DNA from: Rhizaria sp. SCN 62-66
Lineage: Eukaryota
DNA: 63,809 bases
Assembly: GCA_001724265.1 (NCBI GenBank)
Contig: MEDY01000104.1
Span: 124,001 to 187,809 of the forward strand
Direction of reading: 5' to 3'
Shown here: positions 21,801 through 63,652 of the stretch, one piece after another
How positions within the stretch are numbered: position 1 is the first letter of the stretch
How the letters are laid out: each line of letters begins with the position of its first letter
The notes under the pieces: model-generated
The model's input: only the letters and a program-made list of their open reading frames with translations
The model's database searches: none
What the model was told of the DNA's origin: nothing
Program-made: the position numbers and the translations under genes

Positions 21801-24800
21801 TCCCTCTGACGGTCAACGTCGAGCAATGGCTCGCTCAGCTCACTGCAAACATGCAGGAGACCCTGCTGGCGCTGCTCATCGACTGCGTCGCGGCCGCCAA
21901 CGCGAGCAGCGGCGCCGGCGCCGGGACCGGTAGGGCGAGCGCGTTCCTGCCGATCAAGGACTTCGCAGCGTACCCCGCGCAAGTGCTGAACCTGACCGAG
22001 GCAGTGCTCTTCGCGCGCCTGATCGAGTCCGCGGTGCCCACGGCGTCGCTGCCGTCAGCCGTGGCGCAGCTGGAGCACCGGCTTGAGGCGCTGACCTCGG
22101 TCAACACGGCCGGCGACGCCGTGCTCGAGTACAAGGTCAAATCGCTCGTGCTGGATGTGATCCACTACGTCGAGGTCGCCAAGGGGCTCGTGCAGCAAAA
22201 GGTCACGGCCATCGACAGCTGGCAGTGGCAAAAGGAGATCCGCTCCTACTTGCTCACCAAGGACGGGGCCGCGCACGCCGACGCCGCGGCACTGCAGCAG
22301 CGCGCGAGCGGCAGCGGCAGCAAGCGCGTCTACGACAAGTCGCAGGTGCAGTGCGTGGTCAAGATGGTCAACGCCACCTTCGCATACACCTTCGAGTACC
22401 AGGTACGACATGAACAAAACACTGAATTGAAGCTTACTATATAGCTATATATAACCAATATCACACCAAGCCACCCAAATCTTTTATTTGTACAATTCAT
22501 TCACATCATGCTCTCCTTTATCTCAATTGACTTACATGTATAACCGCAATTGTCTTCTTTTTGTTTTCGCGTCGCTGTTTGTTAGGGCAACGAGGCGCGT
22601 CTGGTGCACACGCCGCTGACGGACAAGTGCTACCTGGTGCTGACGCAGGGCATGCACCTCGGCTACGGCGGCTCGCCCTACGGCCCCGCCGGCACGGGCA
22701 AGACCGAGACGGTCAAGGCGCTGGGCCAGGTGCTCGGCCGCCAAGTCCTGGTCTTCAACTGCGATGAGGGGCTCGACTTCCAGTCCATGGGGCGCATCTT
22801 CGCCGGGCTTGTCAAGTCAGGCGCATGGGGCTGCTTCGACGAGTTCAACCGCCTCAAGGAGGACCAGCTGTCCGCGGTGTCGCAGCAGATCCAGGTGATC
22901 CAGACGGCCTTCAAGCGCGGCGAGAGCGAGTGCTGCCTGCTAGGCAAGCAGATCGCCGTCGACGCCAACGCCGCCATCTTCGTCACGATGAACCCGGCGT
23001 CGAAGGAGTACGGCGGCCGCTCGAAGCTGCCGCACAACCTCAAGGAGCTGTTCCGCGCCGTTGCCATGTCCGTGCCCGACAACACGCTCATCGCGCAGGT
23101 GCTGCTCTACGCCGAGGGCGTCGCCTCGGCCGCCAGCCTCGCCACCAAGCTCGTCGAGGTCTACACGCTGTCCAAGCAACTGCTCTCGCAGCAGATCCAC
23201 TACGACTGGGGGTTGCGCGCGCTCAAGACCGTGCTCCGCCACTGCGGCACAGTCGTCCAGCGCGCCAAGCAGGCCAAGCGCACCGCCGCGGCTTTGCAGT
23301 CTAGCGCTGGCGCTGGCGCTGAGTCTACTGAGATGGTGCGGCTGAGCGCGGCCGAGGAGGCCGAGCTGCTCGTGTCGGTGCTCAAGATGAACACGCTCTC
23401 GAAGCTGACGTTTGCGGACGCCACGCGCTTCACGCAGCTGCTCTCGGATGTCTTCCCGGGCGTCCGCGACGAGCCGCAGGTACGCGCAATTTCACATCAC
23501 TGTATATTTTGAATGTTTCTCGCTTTTTATTTCTCTCATTCAAAAATACCTCATATTCTTTATTTTGCTCCCTTTTCTGTAACTTGCCCACAGTCGCACC
23601 CTGCGCTGCGCACGGCTGTGCTGGCCGTGCTGTCAGAACTGGGTCTACAGGCGACCCCGCGGCAGCTGCACAAGATTGACCAGCTCTACGAGGCCGTCTA
23701 CCAGCGCATGGGCGTCGTGCTCGTCGGGCCCTCCGGCGCGGGCAAGAGCACGATGCTGCGCGTGCTGTCGCTGGCGCTGCGCCGGATGGGCGTCGAGGTG
23801 ACGCAGTACACGATGAACCCCAAGGCGACGGACCGCGAGCGGCTGCTGGGCCACATGGACCCCGACACGCGCGAGTGGCACGACGGCGTGCTCACCAACT
23901 CGGCCAAGAAGATCATGCAAGCCGCCGAGACGGCCGGCGCCAACGGAGGCGGCTCCGGCACCAGCACTGCGGCTGCAACCGGCAGCGGTGTGGCTGAGCA
24001 GCGGTCGTGGGTGGTGTGCGACGGTGACGTCGACCCCGAGTGGGTGGAGTCGCTCAATAGTGTGCTCGACGACAACCACTTGCTCACCATGCCCAACGGT
24101 GTACGTTCATTGACAAGCAACAATTCTTTGACATTGTTTATTTTGATTGTGTGTTTTGATTCATGTCTTACGTTAACTTCGATCGAATTTTCAATAATTA
24201 CTCTTATGTGTATGTTTTCTATTGTCTTCTATATTTCTTTTGCTTAACTACAGGCGCGCATTAAGTTCGACGACAGCGTCAACTTCATCTTCGAAACGGA
24301 CTCACTGTCCTTCGCCTCCCCGGCCACGGTCTCCCGCATGGCCGTGATTTACCTCAGCGACGAAGATACCTCGCCCGAGGCCGTGGTCGACTCGTGGCTG
24401 GCTTCGCTGGCCCCCGCCGCGGCTGCCGCGCTGGCGCCCCACATGTCTCTGTTCCACCGCAGCGTCGCGCACGTGCTCACACTCGCTGCCGCGCACCCGC
24501 ACTCGACTTTCGTCGTCCCCACGACCAAGCTCGGGCTGGTCGCCGCCGCGCTGAGCCAGCTGCCCGGCGCGGACACGGCCGAGCGCTTTGCGCAGGGCCT
24601 TGCGCGCGGGCTTACAGCCAACATGTACGCGCAGGCGCGCGTCGCAGTCACGCGCATCGTGTTCGAATGGGCCTCGGTCCGCGTTCCCCCGTCGCCGCAC
24701 GCGCAGCAGCAGCAGAGCGGCGGCGGCATGCTCGACGCGTACATCCCGCTCCCGCGTCTAAATGCCGGTGCCGGCGCTCCCTTAGACGGCGGTGCCAGCG

Positions 24801-27800
24801 GCGGCGGCCGCGCCGAGTGGCGCCACTACGCGCCCCCCACTACCGAGGCTCTGCTTTCCGCGAGCGGCGGCGGCGGCGGGGACGGTGATCACGATGACGG
24901 CGGCTACGACGACGGCGCCAGCGGCGACGGCGATTGCGACGGCGCGGTGCTGCTGAGCGCGGAGCGGCCGCGCATTGTGCTGACGCAGAGCATGCAGCGT
25001 GACGCCGACATCCTGCGCATGTGGCTCACGCAGCTCGCGCACGTTTACTTTGGTCACGCGCCGAACTCGAGCTCCACCGCGAGTGCCGACTCGAGTAACG
25101 CGAACCCCTCCGGTGTGACTGCGCCTGCTGCGGCTGCGAGCGCAGGCGCGAGCTCCGCACCCGCGAAGGCCGCAGCGCACAGCCACGCGCACAGCCACGG
25201 CCACAACGCGGGCCGCTGGCCGCCGATTGTGCTCGTGGGCCCGGAGGGCAGCGGCAAGTCGCTGCTGCTGCGCCACGTGCTTGCGCCGCTCAAGGGCGTC
25301 ACTGTGGCGTATTTGCACTGCTCTGGGCAGACCAAGGCCGCGCACGTGGTCCAGAAGCTCATGGACCTCTGCACGCTTACTTCGACCGCCAACGGACGCG
25401 TACGTATCAGAACAACTCATTCTTTGATCAATGGATTGAATTGCTAATGTATTTTGAATTGATGATATGAATTTTGTCCTTAAAAACAAATTGCTTACTT
25501 TTAATATCATATGTTATCTGCCTTGCTTAACACTGCAGGTTTTGCGCCCCAAGGACGGCGGCGAGCGCGTGGTCCTGGTGCTCAAGGACGTGAACCTGCC
25601 CAAGCCGGACGCATACGCGACGATCCAGCTGGTATCTTTCTTGGAGCAGCTGATCACGCACGGCGGCTTCTACGACGACGCGCTCGAGTGGGTGCGCGTC
25701 GAGGCCGTCCAGGTCGTCGCCGTCATGAACCCGTCCTCGACCGTCGGCCGGCACCCGCTGTCGACGCGCTTCACTGCCAATGTGCGCGTGCTCGCCGTCG
25801 ATGCGCCCTCGCACGCGCAGCTGCTCTCTGTCTACAGCGCCTACGCCTACGCGCTTTGCAACACGCCCAACTGGCTCGTCGTCAACGCCAGCGCCAATGG
25901 CGACGTCGATGCGGCGTCGCTCGAGTACTCGACCCCGCCGTCGCAGCAGCACGTGGCGCAGCTCGACTGGCGCTCGCCGGCCGCCGCGGTCACGCTCGCG
26001 ACATGCATGGTCGAGCTCTTCGCCAAGGCCACGGCCGCGTTTCCGCCGCAGCAGCACCGCCACTACCTGCGCTGCGCGCGCCACCTGACGGCGCTCGTGT
26101 GCGGCCTGCTGCGCTATCCGGCCGTGACGCCCCGCTCGCTGCCCGCCGTATTCGCCTACGAGGCGCAGCGGCTGTTCCGCGACCACCTCGCGGACGAGCC
26201 CAGCCGCGCCAAGTTCGACTCGATCTTGGCGGGCATCGTGCAGGCGCGGCTCGGCGGCGCCGTCGTCAATTTCGGCAGTGCGGTCCGCAGCAGCATGGTC
26301 GATCCCCTGCTCGCGGCCACCTCCGCCGCCGCTAGCAGCGGCGCCACTGGCGCTGGCGGCGATTCGGCTGCGCTGGACTCGGCCGACGAGGCGGGCCCCG
26401 CGCTGGAACTGGTGGCGCTGCCCGACTTTACCGAGGCCATGGCCAGCGCGCTCTACACGTATCAGCGCGACTCGCAGTCGGTGTCACTGGCGCTGTTCCC
26501 CGAGGTGCTGCAGCACCTGGCGCACATTGAGCAGACGTTGTCCGCGCCCGGCGGCTCGCTGCTGCTGGCCGGTGACTCGGGCGTCGGCCGCCGCGCGTGC
26601 GTTGCGCTTGTCTGTCAGCAGCTCAACTACCACGTGCACGCGCCAGCCGCCTCGGCGCGCGGCGCCAGCGTCAAGGGCTTCCGCACGGAGCTCAAGGAGC
26701 TGGTCCGCCTCGCGGGCGCCGAGGCGCGCGGCGTGTGCCTGCTGCTCGAGGACCACCTGCTGGTCGACGAGCGCGTGCTGGAGGACGTCAACAGCCTGCT
26801 CTCGGCGGGCGAGGTGCCAGGGCTGTTCACGGCGCCCGAGATGGAGGCGCTATGGTCCCCCGTCCGCGAGGACTTCAAGTCGCGCCCGCGCGGCTGCCGC
26901 TCCGTGTCGGAGTTCTTCGCGGCCCGCGTGCGTGCGAACCTGCACGTGGCACTGTGCCTGACGCCCGCGCACCCGCGCTTCCGCGCGCGCGTCGAGGGCA
27001 ACCCCGCGCTCGTATCACGCTGCAAGACGGTCTGGATGGGCGCCTGGGGCGGCGAGGGCATGCGCGCCATGCCTGCTCTGCACCTGCAGGCCGTCACCAG
27101 CATCATCGACCAGGAGCTCAACGCCAAACAGGGCGCGGCCCCCGCCGCGGCCGCAGCCAGTGCGGCAAACAAGCGTGACGGCGAGCACCTCCTGCGTCTG
27201 GTGCAGTACGTCCACACCTCGCGCACCAGCGGTGCTAATGCATCCGCCGATTCTGGCGCCAGCGACGCCAGCAGCAGCGGCGCGTCGCCGGCCAAGTACG
27301 TGGCGTTCCTGACGCTGTACGCGTCGATGTTCGAGCGCAAGCGGACGACGCTGACGGAGAAGCGGACGCGGCTGCAGACGGGTCTAACGAAGCTGACCGA
27401 GGCCGCGACCACGGTCAACGAGCTGACGCAGCAGGCGCAGCTGCAGCAGCAGCAGGTCGCCGCCAAGCAGGCCGAGGCCGACGCCGCACTGGAGGAGATC
27501 ACGACGCGCATGCAGACGGTCGCGGAGCGGCAGCGCGAGGCCGCACAGCTGAAGGAGCATCTGACTGGGGAGGAGAGCAAGATCGAGGGCAAGAAGGCCG
27601 TCATCGAGAGCGAGCTCCGCGACATTATGCCGATCCTGCAAGCCGCGCAGGCCGCCGTCGGGACGATCCAAAAGGACCACCTAAACGAAATCAGGGCCTA
27701 TCAGATGCCGCCCAAGGCCGTCTCGCACGTGCTCGGCGCAGTGCTCACGCTCATGGGCGTACAGGTACGCAAATATTTCAAGAGTATCAAATTTTGTCGC

Positions 27801-30800
27801 TAATTTTGTATACGAATCAAATCTCACCATGCTTATCATTTATCTTGAACCGCATTTTTCTCCTTATTGTACTGCCATAATGTAATCCTAGGACCTCACA
27901 TGGGCGAGCATGCGCAAAACGTTTGCTGACCCGTCGATCAAGGACTCGATCATGCGTTTCGACGGTGCCAAGGTCACCAAGGACATTCGTAACAAGGTCA
28001 AGAAGCTCATCGAGACCAACGCTGAGTCTTTCGAGCCGGCGCGCATCCAGTCCGTCTCCAAGGCCGCCGCGCCCCTCGCGCAGTGGGTCCGCGCTCAGGT
28101 ATGGATCACAATCAAAACAAGGAAATCTCTATGATGTGTAACTCTCTGATTATGAAATCTAAATCACATTCGCGCTTATGTTTAAGTTTACACGTCATCG
28201 ATTTCCAGAATCCCAAGCTAACATCATTGCCACCTTTGTTTATGTTTCATCCTCTCAGGTCGAGTACTCGACGGTGCTGGACACGGTCGGCCCCAAGAAG
28301 GCCGAGTTTGAGCACGCTAACGCGCAGCTTGAGTCGGCGCGCTCGCGCCTCGCGCAGTGCGGCGAGGACCTGGCGCGCATGGAGACCGAGGTCAAGACGC
28401 TCAAGAAGACCTTCGGCAAGACGACCTCGGAGGCCGAGGCGCTCAAGATCGGACTGGTCAAGATCACGGCCACGGTGACCGCCGCGCAGAGCCTGCTGGG
28501 CAAGCTCTCGGGCGAGCACGAGCGCTGGGTGGCACAGGTGCGGCAGCTGAGCGGCGCGCTGGTCGCGCTGCCTTACAGCACGCTGCTGGGCGCTGGCTTC
28601 GTCGCCTATTTGGGCGGCGAGGACGAGCGTGTGCGCCAGGCCGTGCTCGACGACTGGCGCGGCAAGTGCGGGCTTAAGAAGGCGGACTTCCTCTCGTTCA
28701 TCACCAACGAGGCCGAGATGCTGCAGTGGCGCGAGCAGGGGCTGGCCGCCGACACGCTGTCGATGCAGAACGCCGCGATCATCCTCAACTCGCACGGCAC
28801 CGTGCCGTTCATCATCGATCCCTCAGCGACGGCCACCGCGTGGCTCACCAAGGCGCTTGCCGCCGAGGCCAACAGCGCCAGCTCTAGCACGAACACTAAC
28901 TCTGGCGCTAATGCCGGCGCAGCTGTTGCTGCTGGTGCTGCTGCTGGCGGTAAGAACGCGAAGACTGAGGTGGTCACCGTGACTCTGCAATCGGAGCGCT
29001 TCCAGACGGCGCTGGAGCTTGCGGTGCGTTTCGGCAAGACGCTGATCGTGAACGAAGTGGACCGTATCCCGCCGATGCTGTACCCGCTGCTGCGCAAGGA
29101 CATCAAGAAGCAGGGCATGCGCCAGACGGTGCAGATCGGCGACAAGGTCGTCGACTACAACAGCGAGTTCAGGCTCTTCATGTTCACGCGCGACGCCATC
29201 CAGACCAGCTCCAACGTTGGCGGCAGCGCTGTCGGCGGCGCGGGCGCTGCCGTCTCGCCCAGCGGCTCCGGCTCCGGCCAGATCCCGGTGGACATCGTCA
29301 ACTACCTGACTGTGGTGAACTTTACGGTTACGCGCTCAGGGCTCGAGGACCAGCTGCTCGCGCTCACGGTCAACAACGAGTTCCCGTCGCTGGAGCAACG
29401 CAAGAGCGCGCTACTGGCCGAGGAGGAGCAGTGCAAGGTGCAGCTGGACCAGCTGGAGCAGCAACTGCTCGAGGAGCTGGGCAAGTCCCAGGGCAACATC
29501 CTTGACAACACCGAGCTCATCGCGCGGCTCGACGCGACCAAGAGCCAGGCCGTGGCCATCGCCGACTCACTGGCCAAGGGCCAGGCGCTGCAGGCGCAGC
29601 TCACGGCGCAGCGCGAGGCCTACCGCTCCGTTGCAGTGCTGGGCTCGGTGCTGTACTTCGCCGTGGCAGGGCTCAGCGCGGTCAACTGCATGTACCAGTT
29701 CTCGCTGCCCAGCTTCCTGGCGCTCTTCCGGGCCACGCTGCAGATGTACAACAAGCACCGCGGGCGCACCGGCGACGCCAACGCCAGCGCTGGCGCTGAG
29801 AGAGGCTCGGCCGAAAGCGGCGGGAGCAACGACGCCGACGCGCTGGCCGCGGTGACGTGGCTGCCGACAGCGCTCAAGCGCAAGGTCTACAACGACGTCT
29901 CGCGCGGGCTGCTCAAGCAGGACTGGCCGGTGCTGGCGCTGCTGCTGGCGCGCGCAGTGCGCCCCGGGCTCTGCACCGAGCAGGAGTGGGGCACCTTCAC
30001 CGGCGCAACCCTCGCCAACACCGCCAGTAGTGCTGGCGCTAACACCGGTAGCGACGAACAGCAGATGTTGCTGCAGCAGCAGCAGGTGCAGGTGCCGCAG
30101 TGGGTTAGCAGCGACCGCATTGCGGCCACGCGCACGCTGCTGACCGCGCTGCCGCAGCTCGCCGGGCTGCTGCGCCTCAGTGACGTGCAGATCTGGGGGC
30201 CCTGGGCCCAGTCGCCGACGCCCGAGGAGTCTTTCCCGCTGCCCATCTCCGCGACCGCCAACGCCGGCAGCGCGGGCGGCGGCGGCGGCATTGTGGGCAT
30301 CGAGAGCGCGGTGTCGCAGTCGGTGACGCTGTTCCACCGCCTGCTGCTGCTGCAGGCGACGCGGCCCGACCGCCTCGTCCCCGCTGTCGCTGCGCTCGCC
30401 GCCGCAGTGCTCGAGGTCACTGGCGGCCTGGCCCCGCCCTCGCTGGCGCTCGGTGAGGTGACCGCGGAGGCCGGCCCCGCGCAACCCGTGCTGTTTGTCA
30501 CCACGGCCGGCGCGGACCCCAGCGTCGAGATCGAGGAGTACGCCTCCAAGGCCCTCGCGACCAGCGCGGGCAACGCCAATAACGGCGGCGCGAGTGCCGC
30601 GGGCGCACTGGTGCAGATTGCGCTCGGTTCCGGCCAGACCAACGCCGCGCTGGACGCCGTGACCGCGGCAGCGCGCACCGGCGGCTGGGTGCTGCTCAAG
30701 AACCTCCACCTGGTCGCGGCCTGGCTGCCCGTGCTGGAGAAGGCCGTCAACAGCCTCACACCGCACGCCAGCTTCCGCCTCTTCTTCACCACGGAGGAGC

Positions 30801-32650
30801 ACCCCGCGTTCCCGCCGCTATTGCTGCAGCAGTCGCTCAAGATCTCCTTCGAGGCGCCGCCCGGCGTTAAGGCCAACATGCTGCGCACGCTCGAGAGCTG
30901 GGACAGCGGCTACCTCGCCGCGGGATCGCTCGCGCGCGCGCAGCTGCTGTTCCTGCTTGCCTACTTTCACGCTATCGTGCAGGAGCGCCGCAACTACCTG
31001 CCGCAGGGCTGGACCAAGTTCTACGAGTTCTCGACCTCGGATGCGCGCGCCGCCGCCGACACCATCGACCAGCTGTTCGCCGACAGCGGCAAGCTCAAGG
31101 CGCTGCTCGCGTCAGGTTCCGTCGCGCCCGACGCGGCGGTGCTCAAGGCGCTCAAGGAGGTCGCGCCCGCACAGGTCGAGTGGAACGTGCTGTGGGGGCT
31201 CCTGCGCTTTGCCGTCTACGGCGGCCGCGTCGACTGCGAGCAGGACGTGCGCATCGTCGCAACCTTCCTCCGCAAGCTCTTCGCCGCCGACGTCCTCTCC
31301 GACTCGGCCGCGGCCGCCCCGCGCCGCCGCGTGTTCCCGGGCCCGGAGCTGCCGCGCACGACAGCCAAGCACGAGTACCTCGCCCTTGTCCGTTCGCTGC
31401 CAGACACAGACTCGCCCGCGTCGCTCGACCTGCCGCCCAACGTGCAGCTCGAGGCCTCCCGCGCCAGTGCGCTGTACCTCGCGCAGCAGCTGCGCCGTAT
31501 CCTCGTCTCCTCCGCCGCCTCCACGGCCGAGGGCGGCGCGGGCTTCTCGCGCGCGCTCTGGACCCAGCGCCTCGGCCCCGTCGTCCAGGGCTGGCGCGCC
31601 GGGCTCGCCGCCGCCATCGCGTCATGCCCCGCGCTCGCGAGCGTAAACAGCGGCAACAGTGTCGCTCCCGCCAGCGGCGGCGCAGGCGTGAGCGGCAACT
31701 TCGTGATGCCGAGCCTGCGGACCAAGCCCGAGGACTGGTCGCCGCTGGAGGCCTTCGTGCAACTGGAGGCCGCCAGCGCCGCTGCCATCGTGACTACAGT
31801 CAGTACCAGCGTCGCGCGTCTCGAGGGGCTGCTGTTTGGCGCCGCGCTGCTGACGCCGGAGCTGCAGTCCGAGGGTGCGACGCTGATGCGCGACGCCGTG
31901 CCCGCGGCCTGGTTCTGCCCGCAGGTCGCAAGCACCGGCAAGTGGCGTCCCGAGACGCCCGCGGCCTTCATCCGCCAGCTGCTGGCCCGCGCCGCGGCCG
32001 TCGCGACCATGATCGCCACGCTGACCAGCGCGCCGCCCGCGCAGCCGGGCGCTGCGGCGACAAGCCCCGCGGTGCTGGCGCTTCTGTCGCGGCCCGTGCC
32101 GCTGGCGCTGACCTTCCGCCCCAACGCCTTCCTCAACGCGCTGCGGCAGGAGACGGCGCGCCGCACGCGCGTGCCGCTCGACGGGCTCAAACTCGTCCTC
32201 ACCTTCGACGCCGCGCTCCTGCCCGCGGACGGCAACGCGCCGTTCGCGGCGACGGTGACGGGCATGCTGGCGCAGGGCGCTGCAGTGGCCGCGATCAACC
32301 CGGCCAACGGCGCGCTCGCTGCCGTGCCTAACAGCGCCTACGCCGCCATGATTCCGAACGGCACAGGCGGTGCGTTCAACGCCAATGCTCTGTTCGGCCT
32401 GGCGGACCCGTCCCCGACCGCGCCCGCGTCGTCCCCGCTGCCCGCGTGTCTGCTGGCGTTCGTGCCCACGGCGGCCGCGGACCCGTACCCGCTCACTGCG
32501 GCCGGCGCCAACGCCGTGCCCGCCGTGGCGATGGTCGTGTACGTCAACGGCGAGCGCGAGGAGTCGCTTGCGCAGGTCAAGGTGCCGTGCGGGACCAAGG
32601 TCCCCAAGTGCATCCTCAGCGGCGCTGCGCTGCTGCTGTCCCAGGAGTAA
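15865..32650 (+). CDS. DYNC2H1: Cytoplasmic dynein-2 (retrograde IFT) heavy chain; exons 15865-17159, 17357-19726, 19868-20230, 20365-22402, 22586-23479, 23594-24100, 24254-25399, 25539-27764, 27892-28098, 28259-32650; about 5145 aa
   Basis: Linker FPRFYFLGDDDLLELLGQS. AAA1 TPLTDKCY..GPAGTGKTETVKALG..GAWGCFDEFNRL and HYDWGLRALKTVL. AAA2 GPSGAGKS. AAA3 GPEGSGKS with degenerate Walker B LKDVNLPKPD. AAA4 GDSGVGRR (dynein-2 type). Stalk coiled coils and AAA6 GGWVLLKNLHL. Nine GT-AG introns all in phase (15438 nt), stop TAA. Confidence 0.96.
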
Positions 32651-44198: not shown

Positions 44199-47100
44199 AT
44201 GACTATTAGACACTGCACCATGACTTACGATATCTTGCGGTCATTCGCAGTTGCGATCTTGCTTTGTCTAGCTGCTCTGTCAGTGGCTCCCCACGTACGT
44301 CCTCTCTCCTGAGCTGCCCCCTTCGATTCTCTTTCACCATCCACTTCTTGATTCTATCATTGAAAATTTTGCACAGACTGACCCTACGTCATTATCACAA
44401 CTCGTTTTCTGCTATAGTCTCTGGTGTCGGCCGCGAGCTTCGGTTCTGAGAAGAACGCCTACGTGGTCTCGTCGGGCATCGGTCTGGGTTCGGCCGTCAC
44501 CATCACAGGCACCATCACGCCCATCGCCGTCTCCTAGCTGCTGTCGACGCAGCGCGTGCAGCTGCGTATCCCCGACGGCTTTCTGTTTACGACGGCCGTG
44601 TCCGGCGGCACTGCCGGCTCGCAGTGCGCTGTGGGGCTCGACGGCGTGCTCGTCGCCTCGACAACGATCCACGCCAGTGAGCGCATCGCGCTCTTCTCGC
44701 CACAGGTACGCCGCGTGAAGACGTATATCCGCATATAGCGGAGTAACATTTCAGTATCATCTTAAATGTGCACACACATATTGTTTATTTCGGTTTCAGC
44801 CAGATATGAGTGAATCCGCGCTCATTATGTTCACTTATACCACTTTGTTTTTGTCATGTTGCTTTGTGCTTCGTTTCCCTATGCCGTAGACGTCCATTAC
44901 GGTTACGTCTCCGTGGTCCTCGTCGCTGACGGTGCAGTGCACGCTGGTGGTAACGCCGCACGCGCCCACCGCGACGACCAACGAGACGCAGACGCAGATC
45001 GTCGACGCCAACAACCAGGTCATCGTTGAGGTCAACGGCGGGTCGCTGCCAGGTACGTTTTCTTTCTTAAAGCAACAACAAAGACGGAGAATCTTTCAGT
45101 AGCCCTTGCGAGGCAGATCAACTGAGTTTTTCTTTTGCGCATTGCTCTATTTTTCTCTATTTTTCAACTTAAAAAAGCTCATATATCTCACTTTTGCCGC
45201 GGAATACCTTTTTTTTTTGTTTCGTTTTGTTCATCGCTCTGCGCAGGTTTCACGACCGTCACCATGGGCTTGTCTTACACCGGCTTCCAGTTCTCGACCC
45301 CCGCCGCAGGCTCAGGCTCCCTGGCCGCCTCCGTCACTGCGATGATTTCCCCCTTAGCTGCGCTGGGCCAGTTCACAGTCTACGACCAGCTGCGGCTGCA
45401 CTTCCCCTTCGACGGCATCAACAGCGGCGGCGCCGCCACGGCGTGCGAGATCACATACAACGGCACTGTCATTGCGACTTCTGATCAATTAGTGGTTGCC
45501 ACGGGCGAGTGCACCGACTGCTCGCTGTCCTCCTCGCCGCCCACAGCCTTCCCGCGCTACCTGCAGCTGACGTTTCTCACCACCGTGTCCATCCCTGCCG
45601 GCGCCACCGTGCCTACGACGACCACGATCGACACCAGCTCCGCCACCACCGCGACCAACGTCTCGGCTATCGCGGACGTCACGCGTGTCACGTGTTCCAG
45701 CGTGACTTTGCGCGCGTCGTCCTCCTCGGCAACCACCACGGGTCTCGTCACCTGGCTGAACCCGTACTCTGAGCTGCTCGCCTACGCCGCCAACGCGCGC
45801 GTGCCCGCGATCGACTCAGCGCCTTTCTCCGCCGCTGCGCTGGGCGCCTTTGACGCACCGGCCTACGCGGGGCTCGCCAACACAGTCCGCTGCTCGCTCG
45901 CGACCTACTTGACGGTCGCGGCCAGCGCGGATCTTGTGATCGCGCTTACGCTGCCGTCGACGTTTCATATCCCTCTCGCAGTCTGCACGAGTCCCTCGGT
46001 GCCGACGCTGGTGAACCCGGGGCAGGCGTTCCCGAACACGCGCGTGCTCAAGACCAACGGGCAGATTACCGTGCTGCTGTGGCTGCCGTTCGCAGTCGAG
46101 GCCGGGGTGACCGTGAGCATCACGTGTACCTCTGTCGGACTGCCCTTTGCCGCCTCCGACGCCTCCACCGTCCCTGGTATGTTCTTATGAGAACAAGATA
46201 CGGCGTGATTTATTTTGGTATTTTGCTTTCATGTTTATTTTCTTCCACTTCAACGCGTTTTATGGTTTTTATGATTGAATATGACGCCTGATTATATTTT
46301 CAATGTTTTTGTTTATCTGCACACTTTTTAGGCGCAAGCATCGTGCTGACGCGTCTGCCCCTGAACACGACGACTGCAACGACCGACGACAACGCGATTT
46401 ACCCGTTCGACGACGACGACGTGTTGGCCTCGGCCACGGGCCTCCAGATCCCCGCCATCATCGCTTACCCGACCACCTATTTCGGCGGTTCCCAGCGCGT
46501 CGTGTCGTTCAAGACGCCCGTGGTGGCCGCACTGACCAACATGACGCTCACGCTCGCGCCCCTTACCGTTTCGCTGAGCTCAGACCGCGTGCTCTACCTG
46601 GCGCTGCCGAACGACATCCGCCCCGACGGCAACGGGACCAGCTCCACGGTGTGCGAGGCGACGTTCAACGCCGTGGCCGTGGCGGGCACCGCGACCATCA
46701 CGCTGAGCGTCGCGCAGCACGTCATCCGCTTCTCGCCGGCCGCCAATACCACGCTCCCGGGCGCCACGACGGCCGCGACGCTTGCTCTGACCTGCACCAA
46801 CATCCGTCTCCCGTCGGTGGAGCGGACCGCCACGCGGCTCACCCCCGTGGGCGTGCTGTCCAAGGCCGACGAGTCGGTGCGCTACGCGTACCTGCGCGGC
46901 GTGCGCATCGACGACATCTACAGCGGGGTTATCGGCACCGCCACGGGCCGCTTCGACCCAGCCTACGCTGGCGCGCTCACCACCTTCGAGCTCACGCGCA
47001 TCCGCGGCACGGACGTGCTCCCCGTCAACACCACGCTCAAGCTCTCGCTGCCCTACGGCACCTCGGCCCCCAACGCCACCGCGGCGTCGCCCGCGACGCA

Positions 47101-51987: not shown

Positions 51988-54900
51988 TTACAACATGAAG
52001 CAAATGCTACTGCTGCTGCTATCGCCACCATCACCAGCACCATCACCAGCGCCCGCGCTCGCGTTATTAGTACTACTCGTCACCTTCTTGCGCCACCTCT
52101 CTGCCGACTCGGCCAGCGCCTTGCGCGGCGACATCTCCCCTCTACCGCCGCCCTTTCCCCCGTGGCCGCGGCTGCTGCCGCGTCCGTGCCCGTGCGCACT
52201 GTTGCCGTTGGCGTAGACCGTCGACACCACGGGCACGCGTCCGTTGCGCGACAGCATCGGCGGCAGAGGGATCAGTTTGGAGTCTAATAGAGAAAGCACG
52301 CGGGCCTGCTCCAGCAGCACCGCCTTGTTCCCACTCCCCGCGCTGGCGTTGCTCGCGCTGTTGCCGTGGATGGCCGAGGCGAGCGCGGCGGAGGCGCGGA
52401 CCGAAACCACCGACGCGGTCGGGCGCGGGGACAAGTCCAGGCTGCCCGCCGTGATCGGCCGAGGAGTCGCAAAGCCACCAGTGGACGAGAAACCGTTACT
52501 GTTCGTGTTGTTGAAGTTAGTGTTCGTGCTGCCAAAGTTAGCAGCGGCAGTGTTCGGCCGCGCGCTGTTGTTGTCAACGCGTTCAAAGTCGCTGCTGTTG
52601 CACGAAGCATTGAACTCGCCACTCGTATTGAAGTTGTTGTCTCCACTCCCGTTACTGTTACCGTTTGCGGGCACGTTGAAGGCGGGAGGAAGCGCCAGGA
52701 TGAAGGTGCCGTTGGTCGAGCGCGTAAACAGCGGGCTCGCCCACGGCCTCTCGCCGCCGCTGCTGACAGGGGCAGCGACGAGCTGTGCAGACGCAGCGGG
52801 CCTGGCGCCGGCGCAGTGGCTGTGAGCACTCGGCAGAGGGGCAGTTGAGGCGAACGCGCTATTGCCGTTGCCCCTGCCGCTGGAGAGGGGACTGATGTGA
52901 GAGCTGGTCATGCCGCTAAAGTTCTGCGGCCGCTGCTGCCCTTGCTGGCTTTGTTCCTGCTTCTGCTGGGGCGAGGGCGGGGGCGGCATCGGCTTGACGA
53001 GCTATGATGTGGTGCAGTGATAAACAGAAGAAGAAGTATAAGACATGAGAAGTCCGAGAATAGATCCAAAATTAAAAGCAATAGTCTATCGATTAAAAAA
53101 GTCGAGGCTTTTAGACGAATCAAGTAATGTTCCAAAGCACGTACCTGTCCGTTTGCGGTGAGCGTGTAGCCGGCCCGGAGCGAGGGCGACTGCAGGCGGA
53201 GCTTCACGCCCTCGCAGTTGGTAAACACGCACGGGTCCTGTTCTTGCGGCTGCTCATCGCCGCCGTGCTCGCCACCCTGCTCGCCGCGCTGACCGGTCGC
53301 AGAGCCAACGCCGTGACTGGACACGCTCTTGCAATTGTTGTTTGCGAGGCTCTTGGCGTTATGAATGGCACGCTTGCCGTTGGTGTTGTTGCGGGCAATT
53401 CTGCCAGTTGCTTTGCCGCTGCCGCCGTTGTTGCCATTCTGGCTGTGGGGGCTAAGGCTGTGGCCACAGTGCCTGCAACACTCGCCTTCATCACCATCAC
53501 CACCAACGCCAGCGTTAACAGCTGCACTCGCGCTATCGGGCTCTTCAGCTGCAGTCCCGCCGTTGTTCGCGTCGGCGCCATCACTACTGGTGGCAGTCGT
53601 GCTGCCGTTGCCGTTGCCGCCGGCATTGCCAGGCCCCTGGTCCCAGAGGTGCAGCGCCGCCGCGGCGACGGGCGGCACTGTCGACAGATGCGCCGGCGCC
53701 AGCGAGGCCGCGACGGGCGGCGGCGGAAGCCCTGTCCTGCCGCCGACGCCGCGCGCGCTGGCGCAGTGTACGCGTCCGTCGGCGCTCCAGACCGTGCCAG
53801 GCTTGCTGCCGCCGCCGCCGCCGCCCGCGGAGGTCACGCCTGCACGCCTGGACGCCGTGCCGCTCTTGCCGGGGTCGCCACCGGCGTTGAGGTTTGCGAC
53901 CGCGGCTGCGACCGCCGCCGCCGCCGCCAGTACGGCCGGGGGCTGGTTCACGGCGCCCTTCGTCTTCTGCCCCCCCGAGGCGTTGGCTTGTTGGTTGATG
54001 CCCATCAGCGCATTGAACCCACCTCCGGGGGGCCCAGTGCCACTGAGGCTCTCGCAGTAGCCCTTACAGCTCGCCACGCGCTCGCTCAACACCACAATCA
54101 CCTCGCGCGCCGCCGCCGCCGCGTCAGCTTCGGCCGCCGCGCGCCGCTTCGCCTCCAGCAAATGCTTTTCGAGGGTGTTTTTTTCGGTCCTAGTCGTCGC
54201 GAGCGTGTCCTGCGTGGTGCGCAGCAGCCGAAGCGTGCTGGAGAGCTTCTCCCCGCTGGCCGCGGCGGCGTCTTCGGCGCGCGAGGCCTCGCGGTGGCGC
54301 CGCGCAAGCGCCGCCTTGGCCGTCTCGGCCTCCGCACGGGCCTGCTCGAGCTGCCGCTGCAGCTCGGCGACCTAGGTTGGCAGCCCAGGGGCGTCGCCGC
54401 CGGTGGCGGAGGCATTGGTTTTAGGGATGCTGCTGCCCCCGTTGGCGTTGCTGAGTTTGTTTTGCTGGGGGAAAAAGGCCTTTTCGTGGCGCGCAAGCGG
54501 GGTCGGGCCGGATAAATCGTACGCGTCGCCGTTGGCGTTGTTCGACTTGGTATTAGCGCTGTTGAGCGCCTGGAGCCGCTTCATCGTGCTGTTGCCGTAA
54601 CCATTGCCGCTAGTGCCGTTGGTGGAGTTATTGCCGTGGCTGCCGTCATCGTAGTCGTCGCCGTTGTTGTCGCCGTCATCGTGGCCGTGCGGGTCGGAGT
54701 AGCCTTGGTAGGAGTCTCGCCGCTGCTGCTGCTGCTGCTGTTGCGGTTGCTGCTGCGAGTAGAGCGAGGATGGCAGCATGAGCGGGGACCGACCGGAACT
54801 GGAGATATCGTCGCTCGCCCCGTCCATGTGGTAGTTGCCGTAGTTGTTGTTGTGGTTTTGCGAGTACTCGACGTCGAACTCGCCTTGGTAGAGGTCGGGG

Positions 54901-57216: not shown

Positions 57217-58384
57217 TAACTTAATGATAGAGTAGTAGTTGTTTTTGTGTTGTGTGTTTGTGAAAATGTAAACAACACTTTCACTAATTGTGAAAGAAGC
57301 ATACACTATCGCACTCGCCGAACTCAAACATGTAGCGTGTGAATAGAAACAAACAAGCACGAGACAAAGTCCGAAAAACAAGAAGCCACAAGTAGCACTC
57401 ACTGTAGGAGCAATTACTAACTACAGGACGAAAATGAAACAGACAAATAAGCAATAGGTGAACAAATAAAGCAAATACAATATGCCCATGTACTTTAGGT
57501 TCGTATACACATTGAACTAATACAGAGACGCTGAGAGTAACAGCGTACACGTTGAGACGTCTCAACACGTGTAAGAACAGAGTGATATGAGCAGAGGTAT
57601 ACAGGTAGACTGCACACGAACATGGCGTTTACATGCGCAGTAGACAGATTGCAGGTAATAAACAAGACAAACTAACTAATCAAAGCAGTAGGTAGTACGA
57701 TTGAATACGCTAGATATGGACTAGAGTTAGTCACACGTCTCAGCAAAATATGAGAAACAACTGCAGTGTAAGAAGAAAACGAACGAAATGGGCGACAAAG
57801 TCGGAGCTGAGACGTAAGCTAAACATATTAGGCGCAAAACATAAAACAAAAAATCGTCGAATGAGTGACATGTACGCGACATGACAAGGCTTCAACGGAA
57901 AACAAAAGTGTGCATATGCAATGCACAGAATTGTTAGAAATAGCAGACTAGTTGCACAGCAAAAAAAAGAAAGGCTTTGTTTGCAAGAAAAGAAAATACT
58001 AGTCGAGGCACGAGTGATCTTGTGCTCCGGACTAGTAATTGACGTGGCTGTGAATGTAGCTGTAGCCGCAACAAGTGTGACTGGTTACGACTGGCTGGTT
58101 TGCTAGTTTGTCGTTTGTTTTGTGATACACTCTCAGTAATATTGTGTTTGGTGTTTGTAGTTTGAATAAAAAAATGTAACTACAAGTTATCTTTGGAAGT
58201 ATGGTTGTTGATACCACTCTCAATGTTGATTCGTTTGATCGTTGTTGCTGATATTACTAAGGATGAGTAAATCACTGCTAGTTTTGTTAATGAATACGAG
58301 TATACGTTTTTGTTGGAGTGGTCAGATAAACAGTGCACGGAAGAGTTGAAGCTTACTTCAAGTTGCTAATACTGTTTAGCGCAC

Positions 58385-61300
58385 TTAAGATTGCGACTCA
58401 GACTGAGCCTGCGACGGCGTCTAAAGCTGCAGCGGCGGTGCCGGCTGTCCGCGCGCAAAAGGCTGTGGCGCTGCATGCGGGTGCAGGCGCACAGGCATGT
58501 GTTGTTGCAGCGTTTGTTGCGACCGTGCCTGTGATAGCTGAGGTGGCGACTGGAGCTGCGCTTGCGACAGAGACAAAGACTGTGAGAAGATCTCACTTTG
58601 CTCGCCAGTACGAGGTCCTTGTAAGGGAGACGGAGCCGGAAACTCTGAGGTTCCGTCAAGAGGCTTCACGGCCGTGAACATGTGTCCGCTGCTCAACTGT
58701 CGCTGCTAATCCGAGTTGCCATCACAAGCGCCAACGGTTTCACTCTGCACATCAAGACCCTCGTTTTTAATGCTGATGTTATTAGAGTGAGTCGTGTTGT
58801 TCGCGCTTGAGTTCGCGTTTGAGTGAACGCTCATGTTAAGATCGATATAGTTATGGTTGTTTTTCTTAACATATGAGCTCAACACAGAGTTAATGATACA
58901 TAGAGCGTCGTCGCTATAGCCAGCTCCAGTAAACACGCCGTCAGCCAGCCCGCTGTTGTTCTGGAGAGCAGGAACAGAGACCGTGGCGTTATGAGCAAGA
59001 GTCCGAACAGCACTTGAGGGACTGTGAACAGCGCTAGAGCTGTCTGTGCTTGTGTTCGAAAAGTCATCGTTGCTGTTGCAGGCATCAGTATCATTATTGC
59101 AGCCATTGTAGTCTTCGCGGTAATGACGCTTGAGTTGACCTTGTCTCTGCAACTGTTGCTGCTGATGCTGTTGTTCTTTTAGACGAGAACAAGCGTTGGT
59201 CGCCTTGCTTGCAGCATCAACTGCATTCTTAGTTCCGCTCTCACAGTCGCAGTCGCACTCAAGAGCAGCGTCACTGGCGGTTTCACGCAGACAGCCACAC
59301 GCACACCCACAGCCACAACCGCAACCGCTGGTTCTCTCCTCATCGTCTCCTGCCTCGGTGCTGACGCTATCACCGTCACCAGCATTGCCATCGTCTGTGT
59401 AGTTGACATGGCAAGAGCTGGAGCCGGCCCTCGGCAGCGCTGTCGTGGCCGTTGTGGCGGTGGTCGCAGCGGGCGTGGACTCCGTCACAGCGGCGACGCT
59501 GAGGGACAGCGGCAGCAGCGGCGGCGAAGGCATGATCGGCGATGACGGCAGAGACGGCAGCGCCAGAGTGACGCACGGTGTGTCAACGCTGCTGCCCTGC
59601 GTGTTTGGCGTCGCAGTGGAGGCGACGCCGCCAGTAGCGCAGTTGTCGGCAAAGCTCGGAGACTGAGTCGCGGAGTCGAGGTCAATGCTAGCAAGAGAGG
59701 CAACGGTGGCGCGGCGCGCAGCACGACCTGCAGTCTCAATGTTGCTACCTACAGGCGTGTTCACGCCGCTGTTCGTGAGGCTGCGGACAATGCTGCCGCC
59801 GGCGTTCGCGCTAAGCAAGTTGTTGGTGACAGGGACAGATAGCGGCTGCGTCGACAACGGCGCGTCGGCGACGCTCCCGTCGGCGCTCGCGTGAGCGCAA
59901 ATCGCTTTTGTGCGGACCGTTTGTTCGTCAGAAGCATGATGCGTGGTGTCCCCAGTGCTGAAACAAGAGCTGGCCGAAGACGAGCGATCATCAGCAACTG
60001 CGGTAGAGCTGATACCTGTGTTCGAAGAGTCCGTATTGCCCTGATCAATGCCGAGGCTGTTGTTGGCTGTATCAGCGTAGCTGCAGTCAGCGTGCCTACT
60101 CCCAATAGCGTGGGCATTTACAGTTGCACTTTTGTCGTGCGCAGGATTGCTCGTGCCAGCAGAAGCGTTGCTGTAGCTGCTATTGCCGATGTCGTCGAGC
60201 ACACACCTCGCAGAGGTCTCGCTTTCAGCCGGTCCCGCCTCGACAGCCGCCGTCGCGCTTGATGCCGTTATTGCCGCTGCCGCCGCCGCCGCCGCCGCTG
60301 CCGCCGCCGAGCACTAAGCCGAGCTGCTAATAGTCCAACTGCTTGGCGTAGTAGCGCTACCACAGCTGCTGTTGTTAACCCTGGTGCTCCCCACGCCATG
60401 ATCGATCGCGACGCTCGGAAGATTCAGCTGCATGTCGAGAAAATCCTGAGCGTAAAACACCTCATCGAGCATGTCGTCCACGCTCTCAAGCTGCATCAGC
60501 AGCACGAGCACGGTGGGTCGCTCAACGAGCTTAAGGCTCTTCATCAGCACGCCTTGCGGCAGCAGCTTTTGCAGCCTCATCAGCGCTGAGCGCTCGTGGA
60601 GGCTGTCGCCGATGGAGATCACTTGCTGCGGGAAGTAGGATGCAAACACGAGCTCGCGCGCGTACCAGTACTCCTCGCGTAGGTAGTGCTTCGGGCCGTG
60701 GGGGCGCGGGGGAGCCTGTGCCTGGCTCGAGGACTGAGCCGGAGACTGACTGCAAGACTGACTGCGAGACTGCTGCGCTGAAGCAGTCGAGCAGCCGTGG
60801 GCGGAAGAGTACGAAGAAGACGCTGACGCTGACGCGGACACTGACGCCGATGACGATTGTTGCGCATGTTGTTGTTGCTGCTGTTGTTGAGCCACCCGCA
60901 GCTGTTGCAGTTGCTGCTGGCGCTGCTGCAGCTCCTGCAAGGCCTGCTCGCACTCGGCAAGCCACTGCTTCTGCGTGCACGTCCAATCGCCCTGCAATTT
61001 GCGCTGCTCGTGGCGAATAATACGGCGGTGGCGCCGGCGCTGGCGTCGGTCATGTTCGCGCTCGCCCTCGTCTTCGCTGTCGCCGCTCTCGTCGCCGTTG
61101 GGAATCGTGACGCTGACGCTGAAGCTTGCGGTCACAGTCTCGCTCGGTCTCCGCCGCGGCGGCTGCTGTTGTCTGCCAGTGTTGCGCGCGCTCGTGCCCT
61201 TGTTGCTGGCACATGCGTTACCGTCGTCGTCATCATCATCGGTGCTTTCGACGCCAGAGCCGTAGTCAGTGTCTGTGTCGCTGCACAAGTCAGCGTGGTT

Positions 61301-63048
61301 CTGGTCGTGCTGCTGCTGCGACGGCAATCGAGGCCAAGAGTGCTGCTGGGACTGGCGCAAGCGGTGCTGAAACGGACACAGCAGCCGCTGCTGGCAGCGG
61401 TGCTGCAGCGGTTGGCGTCGTTGCTGCAGCTGCTGCTGGAGTTGGAGCTGCTCATCATGGAGCGCAATCGGCTGATGTTGTTGCTGCTCAATCGGCTCAC
61501 ATGCAAGGCAGTATGAGTGCAGGCGCAATTGCTGCCGCAGTTGCCGCGCTTGCAGCTGTTGCTGTTGCTGTTGCTGTTGTTGGAGCCGCTGATGCAATAG
61601 TAGTTGCTGTTGTTGCGTGCGACGCTGCAACCATTCAGCGAAACTGAGGCTGTTGTTGTTAGTATGGACGCTGCGTAGACTTGACGTAGCTGCTGCAGCT
61701 TTAGCGTCACTGGTGGTGCCACAACAGTCCTGCGTCGGCCCCAAAGTGGCGCTGCTGCTGACGGTATCGGCGCTGGCTAGACATCTACTTGCAGCCGCGG
61801 TCGCAGCCGCAATGTGACTGGGGTTGACGGCGCTGAGCTCGTTGGCACCGCTCCAGCCGCAGCGGCAGCTGTACGTGACCCAGTCGACAGCGCACACACC
61901 ATCACCCTCGAAAGCAGTATCTGTAGCATCGGCAGTAGCAGCAGCGGCGGCGGCGGCGGTGGCGGCGGCGGCGGCGTGAAGGCGATGAGCGTTCGCAGCG
62001 GTGATGCTCAACCGCGCCCGCGCACTTGCACTTCTGACTGTCGCGACCGCGGTCGCTGAGGCAGTCGCATCCGAGACGCCGCCGTTCGCTGCATCACCAG
62101 CACCAGAGTGCTGTAGCGCAAGGGCCGGGCTCGTGGATGCAGAAGTCCGGGCGGCGGCAGCTGCGGCGATGATACTTGCGTTCTGGGCGGTATAGTTATC
62201 ACTGTTATCGCTATCGCTATCCGTGTCAGAGTTCACTGCCAGAGGAGCAGCGCCAGCCTCGGCGCGAGAGCTCTTGGCAGTCTTCGCAGCGTTACCGCTG
62301 TTGTTATCGTTGTTGTTGTTGTTGTTTTTGTTGCTGTTGCTCGTGCTGCGCATCATACGCAATGTCTCCAAGTCAGCCCTCTCGTAGAAACGCTCGGCAG
62401 CAATACTCTCGTCGTTGCTGCTGCTCGCGGTTACACGGCTGACGGTCGTGTTGCCGTCGTAAAACAGCCTCGAGTCCTTTTGCGTGCCGACCCCGCGCAT
62501 TTCGAGCGCGTACACTTTGCTCATCAATCGCTCCACCTTGCTGCTACTGTCGGTGCCGCTCTTGCCGCCGCCGTTGCGATAGTCGCGGGCACTGCTGCTG
62601 GCGCTGCTGCTACAGTCGCTGGCGCTGCTGCTGCTAGCGCGGCGACTGCCGGCGTTGCCGCGCTCTTGCTGCGTCATCGCCGGGTGTGAGCGCGCGGCGT
62701 GGAAGGCGCACTCGCGGAAACCGTAGATCTTCCAGCGTATTGGGCAGTTGGGAAACATGTGTTCGTAGGCCGCGCGGGCGGAAAAGATGGTTGTGCGCGC
62801 CAGGTATGGCACCACGGCGGGGAGAAAGCGATGCGCTGAGAGTTGGACCCATCCATGCTGCGCGTTGGTGACGATGTAGACCTGTGCGAGGGCGGTGGCG
62901 CGCGCGAGGAGGCGGCACACAACTGTTTCGAGGGCAGCGAGGGCGGTGGCGAGGGGCGCCGGGATGGGGTCAGATGTCGCGAGAGACTGGCCGGAGCGGA
63001 CCAAAGAGGAGGTTGGCAGGAGCGTGTCGTCCCAGTCGAAGATAATGA
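58385..63048 (-). CDS. HAD-superfamily (DxDDT) phosphatase-like protein with a large internal insertion and a long C-terminal tail containing three in-frame TAGs; main exon shown, short first exon tentatively 63309-63291
   Basis: Motif I IIFDWDDTLLPTS, motif II YIVTNAQHGWV, then FSARAAYE...WK and motif IV VISIGDSLHERSAL...KSLKLVERP. Acceptor TTCAG ends at 63049. The frame continues through TAG at 60314, 58706 and 58421 to TAA at 58385. The first exon and the tail are less certain than the HAD core. Confidence 0.75.
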
Positions 63049-63652
63049 CTGAAGGATAGAGACAGAGGGCAAGGCAGGGCGAAGGCGCGAATTTGGGGAG
63101 GGGTATGGTAGGAGCAAGGGTGAATGAGCGATCGTTTGTCAAGGATGAAAAGCACATTGATACAGAACAAAATAACAACGACACGATATAATTACACATA
63201 GACAGTACGGTGACACTAAGTCACCGTCAAAACACACAGTACAATAACACTATTGGAGGCGAACAAAAAGATGGAGACAAGTGGCCTCACTCTCCTTTAG
63301 CAACGTCATTGTTCCGACAGATACAGGAGCGATACACAGCCACAAGGAGAAATATAGCACGGAAAAAATGGACAACTATAGCGGCAATATTATAAACAGC
63401 TTTACACTTCAGAAGCACGGCGGGGCATGTCGGGATATCGAGGCTAAGCAGCAAGACTGGTCCATAACAACGTACTATGAGATGGTGATCGTAGATTCGT
63501 ATTTGGTGATGCGCTATTGCGTCTTAGACACTATTCTAAAGACGGCCGTTTACCAGCCGTCCCTTTTGACATCGTCAGCGTTGTAGGCAGAACGAGATTG
63601 TCTGCTTAACGCGTTGGATGAACTCGAATCGTTCCAAATCCAACATTCCTTG

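Follow-up and report, generated by a model that had tools for sequence, protein, structure and literature searches.

A candidate nuclear genetic code with UAG as a rare glutamate codon in a probable cercozoan

The nuclear genes of this organism probably use a variant code in which UAG is a rare, dedicated glutamate codon and UAA and UGA remain stops, a reading to which we assign a probability of roughly three in four and of which three in-frame TAGs in a gene for a HAD-like protein are examples. By the route that we propose, a single-base change would have given one copy of a tRNA-Glu gene the anticodon CUA in place of CUC, and UAG alone would have changed its meaning because a CUA anticodon pairs with UAG and cannot pair with UAA, as set out in PMC5304391. 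Genes would now terminate in TAA or TGA, and the HAD-like gene would be a single frame extending to the TAA at 58385 and encoding roughly 1,600 residues, of which the last 645 would form a low-complexity tail carrying three UAG-coded glutamates. Charging of the tRNA by GluRS, the presence of glutamate in protein and the translation of the tail are all inferred from the DNA.

The window, by which we mean the whole stretch of 63,809 nucleotides that was analysed, is the end of one contig in an assembly of 34.9 Mb and 714 contigs. Its source is a eukaryote, as it contains a dynein heavy chain gene (15865-32650, plus strand) with AT-rich GTAC...AG introns. This gene has many introns, low-complexity insertions and a DYNC2H1-type AAA match. 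It served as a control: the roughly 5,080 codons that were read contain no TAG in frame, and the gene ends in TAA. In a tree of 88 CCT-eta proteins, the organism falls in a fully supported clade with 11 environmental sequences, and this clade lies within an assemblage of weak support (SH-aLRT 83-88), in which the sequences with names come from six chlorarachniophytes and which also includes one EukProt entry; the lineage is thus a probable, weakly supported member of the Cercozoa. At least half of the sampled words were found in each of four sequencing runs, two from bioreactors, one from wastewater and one unlabelled, with runs holding small word shares excluded from the naming of habitats, and the four runs compared represent the same strain (1 difference). 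The ubiquitin genes (L149-L156) are unusually divergent, start with MSMQIF and carry a short extension after GG; the extra serine before MQIF presumably recalls the insertion in cercozoan polyubiquitin. In AT-rich DNA at L151 (G000:C681), a ubiquitin-like domain is fused to another region, which may resemble a tail-fibre chaperone domain, and this locus may be of mobile origin.

A frame interrupted only by TAG

By translation and a stop-to-stop scan, a single open frame on the minus strand runs from 63220 to the TAA at 58385-58387 with no interruption other than TAG, for a total of 1,611 codons with TAG read through. The N-terminal half of the HAD-like domain (62660-63064) carries the DxDxT motif I as FDWDDTL and is followed by a low-complexity insert of about 650 codons that is in frame and without a stop (60719-62659), and then by the C-terminal half (60419-60718), which 34 non-self homologues match. 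The Pfam HAD match covers the N half only and, at 16.1 bits (E=0.016), falls below the cut-off of 27, while the Atlas look-alikes of this half are eukaryotic clusters (0.95 and 0.93). From these features the gene appears to encode a HAD-like protein whose domain is split by the insert. The conserved domain ends 34 codons upstream of TAG 1 (60314-60316), which is followed by 535 codons rich in Ser, Ala, Thr and Asn (58709-60313), TAG 2 (58706-58708), 94 codons rich in Gln, Pro and Ser (58424-58705), TAG 3 (58421-58423), and a final 11 codons with the terminating TAA (58385-58420). All three TAGs would be glutamate codons, beside 20 GAG or GAA codons in the tail. The earlier note had described three successive TAGs in one frame, followed by 535, 94 and 11 further codons and a closing TAA at 58385, in the contexts SSSA-TAG-CSAAA, GNSD-TAG-QRQLSS and PLQL-TAG-TPSQAQSESQS, and translation together with the stop scan bears out each of these points. 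Its start of the ORF at 63199 probably does not hold, as that ATG seems to be intronic, lying upstream of a polypyrimidine tract and a CAG acceptor; coding probably enters the gene through this acceptor at 63051-63049 (minus strand), just 5' of the HAD motif. A first exon would be expected between this acceptor and the end of the contig.

The 642-codon tail contains no TAA or TGA in frame, against a mean of 13.7 and a minimum of 3 in 3,000 dinucleotide shuffles, none of which gave zero. A codon-periodic (three-periodic Markov) model ranked the tail frame first of six in four pieces of 94-200 codons and scored the DNA beyond the TAA at 58385 as non-coding, although this model trained itself on long ORFs, possibly with the tail among them, and is not fully independent; pieces of 11 and 34 codons gave no clear ranking. 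The earlier note held a 1.9-kb continuation interrupted only by TAG to be unlikely for a 3' UTR, and the shuffles exclude a chance opening. A DNA contig from another study (X4, 58250-58751) has 0 differences across TAG 2 and TAG 3, so neither is an assembly slip, and a further contig (X5) spans TAG 2 with 0 differences. TAG 3 and the TAA are also spanned, unspliced and unedited, with 0 differences and 0 gaps, by a contig from a poly(A) RNA library (X12, 58328-58547), which is of low depth and may reflect DNA carry-over. Public records hold this gene as pieces of 947 and 498 aa, and proteins whose last residue falls directly before TAG 1 or TAG 2 are recorded on four ENA contigs apiece, possibly from the same sample.

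It is scarcely credible that the tail lies outside the HAD protein, whether as a separate gene, as a long 3' UTR, or through splicing with the TAGs as acceptors. Introns of this genome do often end in TAG, a homologue search that covered the initial 150 codons of this tail found no real match, and TAG 1 is bridged by none of the four runs compared, an absence of cover that is uninformative. However, the first ATG of the tail (59533) comes 260 codons after TAG 1, which makes a separate gene unlikely, and TAG 1 is preceded by neither an AT-rich intron-like stretch nor a phase-0 GTAC-type donor. The chance opening of the frame is excluded by the shuffles, and the RNA-library contig crosses TAG 3 without splicing. 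The tail instead appears to be a lineage-specific part of the protein. We interpret it as a disordered extension comparable to the insert, in which weaker constraint may allow rare TAGs to build up.

TAG across the genome

Beyond this gene, we sampled the window and about 0.94 Mb of the genome (about 3%), or ~1 Mb in total. Where a stop followed 40 coding-like codons, coding went on beyond 17 of 31 TAGs and beyond none of the 109 TAAs or 83 TGAs, and under a stricter requirement of 100 codons on each side, it did so for 14/500 TAGs, 2/180 TAAs and 0/3,131 TGAs. The two TAAs, in L094 (minus strand, Gln-rich) and L041, lie inside coding-like low-complexity frames that are open for 100 codons on both sides; these could mark the ends of genes that have GC-rich UTRs, or reflect damaged genes or occasional readthrough of TAA. 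In the 1-Mb sample, stops resembling gene ends, defined by the lack of a donor-like motif upstream and by non-coding DNA downstream, comprised 36 TAAs, 39 TGAs and a single borderline TAG. Ten other TAGs have a donor upstream, of which those at L181:2809 and L021:1825 (both plus strand) are followed by TAA within 1-7 codons and by AT-rich DNA; these two may terminate their genes or mark brief extensions that remained after the change of code. TAA ends all eight chaperonin genes that were read to their end, as well as the eRF1 gene.

As a sense codon, TAG is rare. Segments totalling 122,000 codons contain at most 74 TAGs beside 5,172 GAG or GAA codons, the figure being a maximum since the segments run into non-coding DNA, and in four chaperonin domains TAG accounts for 0 of 133 Glu codons. 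TAG nevertheless lies inside conserved coding exons of eRF1, an inositol 5-phosphatase, a Ubc6-like protein and five kinases. Within the window itself, an in-frame TAG at 54372-54374 (minus strand) in the neighbouring gene has a low-complexity stretch on one side and a coiled-coil stretch on the other, with both sides scoring as coding in the best frame, and another at 44535-44537 (plus strand) sits within a short exon of a further gene, between an acceptor upstream and a GTAC donor downstream. Pfam searches of 13 further TAG-bearing segments gave no domain over the cut-off, and no TAG was found in WD40 (0/149), ABC (0/20) or chaperonin (0/18) matches.

Many acceptors of this genome are TAG, so six-frame searches turn up intron ends that mimic in-frame stops. 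A lone TAG was present in 9 of 142 kinase matches, of which five lie mid-exon and four are intron 3' ends, and the lone TAGs in one of 54 kinesin matches and one of 43 DEAD matches were rejected as sense codons because both are intron 3' ends. Raw counts of single TAGs within Pfam matches were not taken as evidence before inspection, six such matches being intron 3' ends. The TAA and TGA cases that we inspected (L062, L091, L092, L169 and L193) all lie in introns. Intron donors are mostly GTAC, and the first intron of the eRF1 gene begins with GTCCGT.

Readthrough programmed in particular genes, RNA editing, or gene decay under the standard code would offer a very improbable account of these TAGs. 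CAR-YYA is a readthrough motif, and TAG 2 is followed by CAG-C, which comes near it, but the contexts after TAG 1, TAG 2 and TAG 3 are TGCTCG, CAGCGA and ACGCCG, and the motif is absent at TAG 1 and TAG 3. TAG 1 is also followed by no stable structure (z = +2.16), and the unchanged TAG 3 in the RNA-library contig speaks against editing. The ubiquitin-like locus L151 may be a degenerate copy, but the pattern is specific to TAG, recurs across many unrelated genes, and is accompanied by a cognate tRNA. The earlier note had preferred reassignment to leaky readthrough, and this preference is supported by the genome-wide continuation past TAG only, by the scarcity of TAG at gene ends, by the tRNA with a CUA anticodon, and by the TAG within eRF1.

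The tRNA, the release factor and the residue

A tRNA gene with the anticodon CUA, one of 16 matches to a pattern search, lies at G000:C84:76009-76081, scores 58 bits against the Rfam tRNA model and is followed by a 3' run of T; no second copy was found. Its best match among 36 other tRNAs is tRNA-Glu(CUC) (34.0), followed by tRNA-His (25.7), with Gln tRNAs at 7.8-13.4. It shares acceptor pairs one to five, the complete T stem and a variable loop of four bases with tRNA-Glu; the three Gln tRNA sequences of the organism have G1-C72, G2-C71 and U73, all of which it lacks. A pyrrolysine system was considered and rejected, as the tRNA is a canonical cloverleaf that matches RF00005 only, and the Pyl label given by ARAGORN merely follows from the anticodon. 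No UUA anticodon was present among 37 distinct tRNA sequences recovered; with 63 of 506 candidates scored, this set is incomplete and may lack a UUA tRNA.

The eRF1_1 family is represented at three places, two of which we read as pelota and the third of which (L069, on G000:C63) is eRF1. Its exon 2, which encodes part of the N domain, contains a mid-exon TAG, one of the gene's 31 Glu codons. A search of metagenomes for eRF1 yielded one identical contig (L202), which matches over 1,626 bases including the TAG and possibly comes from the same sample, and no close relative with DNA. An essential gene that is found once cannot be a pseudogene. The protein carries T32S, G57S and L124M in columns that are invariant in 117 of 117 homologues, as well as T58K in a column conserved in 116 of 117, K being shared only with the closest relative. 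That relative, P0004 (a JGI eRF1, 84% identical), has T58K and M34V in common with this eRF1 and keeps T32 and G57. Leu69 is unchanged, and E55, Y125 and N129 are kept. According to PMC5304391, Thr32 makes contact with the G of UAG and has been replaced in Iotanema, whereas for the human protein PMC3632111 describes T32S as leaving recognition of all three stops largely unaffected in vitro and links E55, Y125 and N129 to the reading of UAG. This eRF1 may have lost recognition of UAG.

The retention of these UAG-reading residues, together with the near-neutral effect of human T32S, provides the main opening for an ambiguous codon, in which tRNA-Glu(CUA) would compete with an eRF1 that still reads UAG, and most of the HAD protein would be a short form that stops at TAG 1, accompanied by longer ones. 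We consider this unlikely but deserving of weight. In its favour, a single copy of the tRNA was found, the chaperonins and dynein avoid TAG, the TAGs at L181 and L021 may be terminal, and TAG 1 is close to where homologues end, as the 34 non-self homologues (85-470 aa) finish a median of 10.5 residues past the C-half match. Against it, TAG has nearly vanished from gene ends (1/76), lies inside an essential single gene, and is crossed three times in series by a frame that stays open and coding-like, while eRF1 itself departs from near-invariant columns at four positions. A further and about equally unlikely possibility is an incomplete code change, in which rare UAGs would be read as glutamate by the one tRNA, eRF1 would still partly read UAG, and its own UAG would exert negative feedback, more eRF1 shortening its own synthesis. 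If this were true, TAGs such as the three of the HAD gene would govern how much of a protein is made in its short form and how much in its long form; the autoregulation of plant eRF1 by readthrough, known from PMC5397192, is the nearest precedent for such feedback. Of these readings, we favour UAG as a dedicated glutamate codon.

As to the residue, the clearest column is that of the TAG in eRF1, where the residue is E in 106 of the 117 homologues compared and D in 10, with a single V (three of 120 having been left out for length). Human eRF1 has E here and the closest relative has Val. Of 31 metagenomic eRF1 loci, 12 have a readable motif, eleven with E and one with Q. In the 5-phosphatase (L006), the TAG aligns with E in all three homologues and, via one of them, with E of fission-yeast 1i9y; a PDB search with a short piece of L006 gave no match. 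Three solved relatives of the Ubc6-like protein (L057) have D, S and E opposite its TAG, and E is the top or joint-top residue at two of the kinase sites, two others being uninformative. Pfam bits summed over seven sites were 489.7 for E, 487.9 for Q, 487.5 for K, 482.7 for S, 476.7 for Y, 474.6 for L and 472.1 for W. These sums disfavour Leu, Tyr, Trp and Ser and do not separate Gln, at a margin of 1.8 bits, or Lys from Glu. Strong discrimination in favour of Glu comes from two sites only, eRF1 and the 5-phosphatase, and one site favours Gln, the ubiquitin-like domain of L151, where the organism's own paralogues have Gln at the TAG. At L180 (minus strand), a TAG lies within DVI-TAG-LSSSSD, which would presumably fit a SUMO-interacting motif if TAG were Glu; such SIM-like motifs are sparse, with two matches.

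A reading of UAG as glutamine, the meaning it has in Iotanema and some ciliates, is quite improbable. The L151 paralogues, the small Pfam difference, and the Gln-rich contexts in the tail, L065 and L145 all speak for it, and the earlier note had taken such contexts as a hint of Gln. However, these contexts may be expected in any case, since one transition turns CAG into TAG within Gln-rich low-complexity tracts. Gln occurs in none of 117 eRF1 homologues and none of four 5-phosphatases, and the CUA tRNA has the stems of tRNA-Glu in place of the pairs that mark the Gln tRNAs. Discriminating conserved sites and the tRNA therefore both point to Glu.

Relation to known codes

Nuclear reassignments of UAG alone are described in PMC11687900 with three residues, Leu, Gln and Ser: Gln in Iotanema spirale, Hartmannula, Trochilia and Protocruzia, Leu in phyllopharyngean MAGs, and Ser in Scotinosphaera. 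In Rhizaria, the sainouroid exLh reads UAG as Leu (Panek et al. 2017, PMC5304391). Like our organism, which probably belongs to the same supergroup, exLh has reassigned UAG alone in the nucleus and keeps UAA and UGA as stops, but the residue there is Leu rather than Glu (Leu being 15 bits lower here), its cognate tRNA was only predicted whereas the gene was found here, and Leu69 of eRF1 is unchanged here. The UAG-only codes of the Iotanema type likewise leave UAA as a stop, and Thr32 of eRF1 is also changed in Iotanema, although to Gly rather than to the Ser found here, and Glu is absent from the residues described there for such codes.

In peritrich ciliates, both UAR codons mean Glu. The same is true of Blastocrithidia, where UGA is in addition Trp and the change has been tied to AT pressure (PMC12153298), and in the ciliate PL0344 UAG is Glu and UAA is Lys (PMC10553269). 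All of these systems resemble the one proposed here in reading UAG as Glu via a tRNA(CUA) derived from tRNA-Glu, but UAA is also a sense codon in each of them, whereas it is a plain stop here (0/109 continue). The AT pressure of Blastocrithidia also contrasts with the GC-rich exons and rare TAG of this genome. Our literature search, which covered only a minority of subscription journals, found no published nuclear code in which UAG is Glu and both UAA and UGA are stops.

If the proposed reading is true, it would add a nuclear code to those described, and, beside that of exLh, it would probably bring the non-standard codes of Rhizaria to two, each with its own residue for UAG. It would also represent a code change in GC-rich genes with very little TAG, unlike the account by AT pressure given for Blastocrithidia. 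Gene calls made with the standard code would truncate this organism's proteins. Given that the genome holds both the tRNA and an altered eRF1, the discrimination of UAG from UAA by a release factor would be directly testable in this system.
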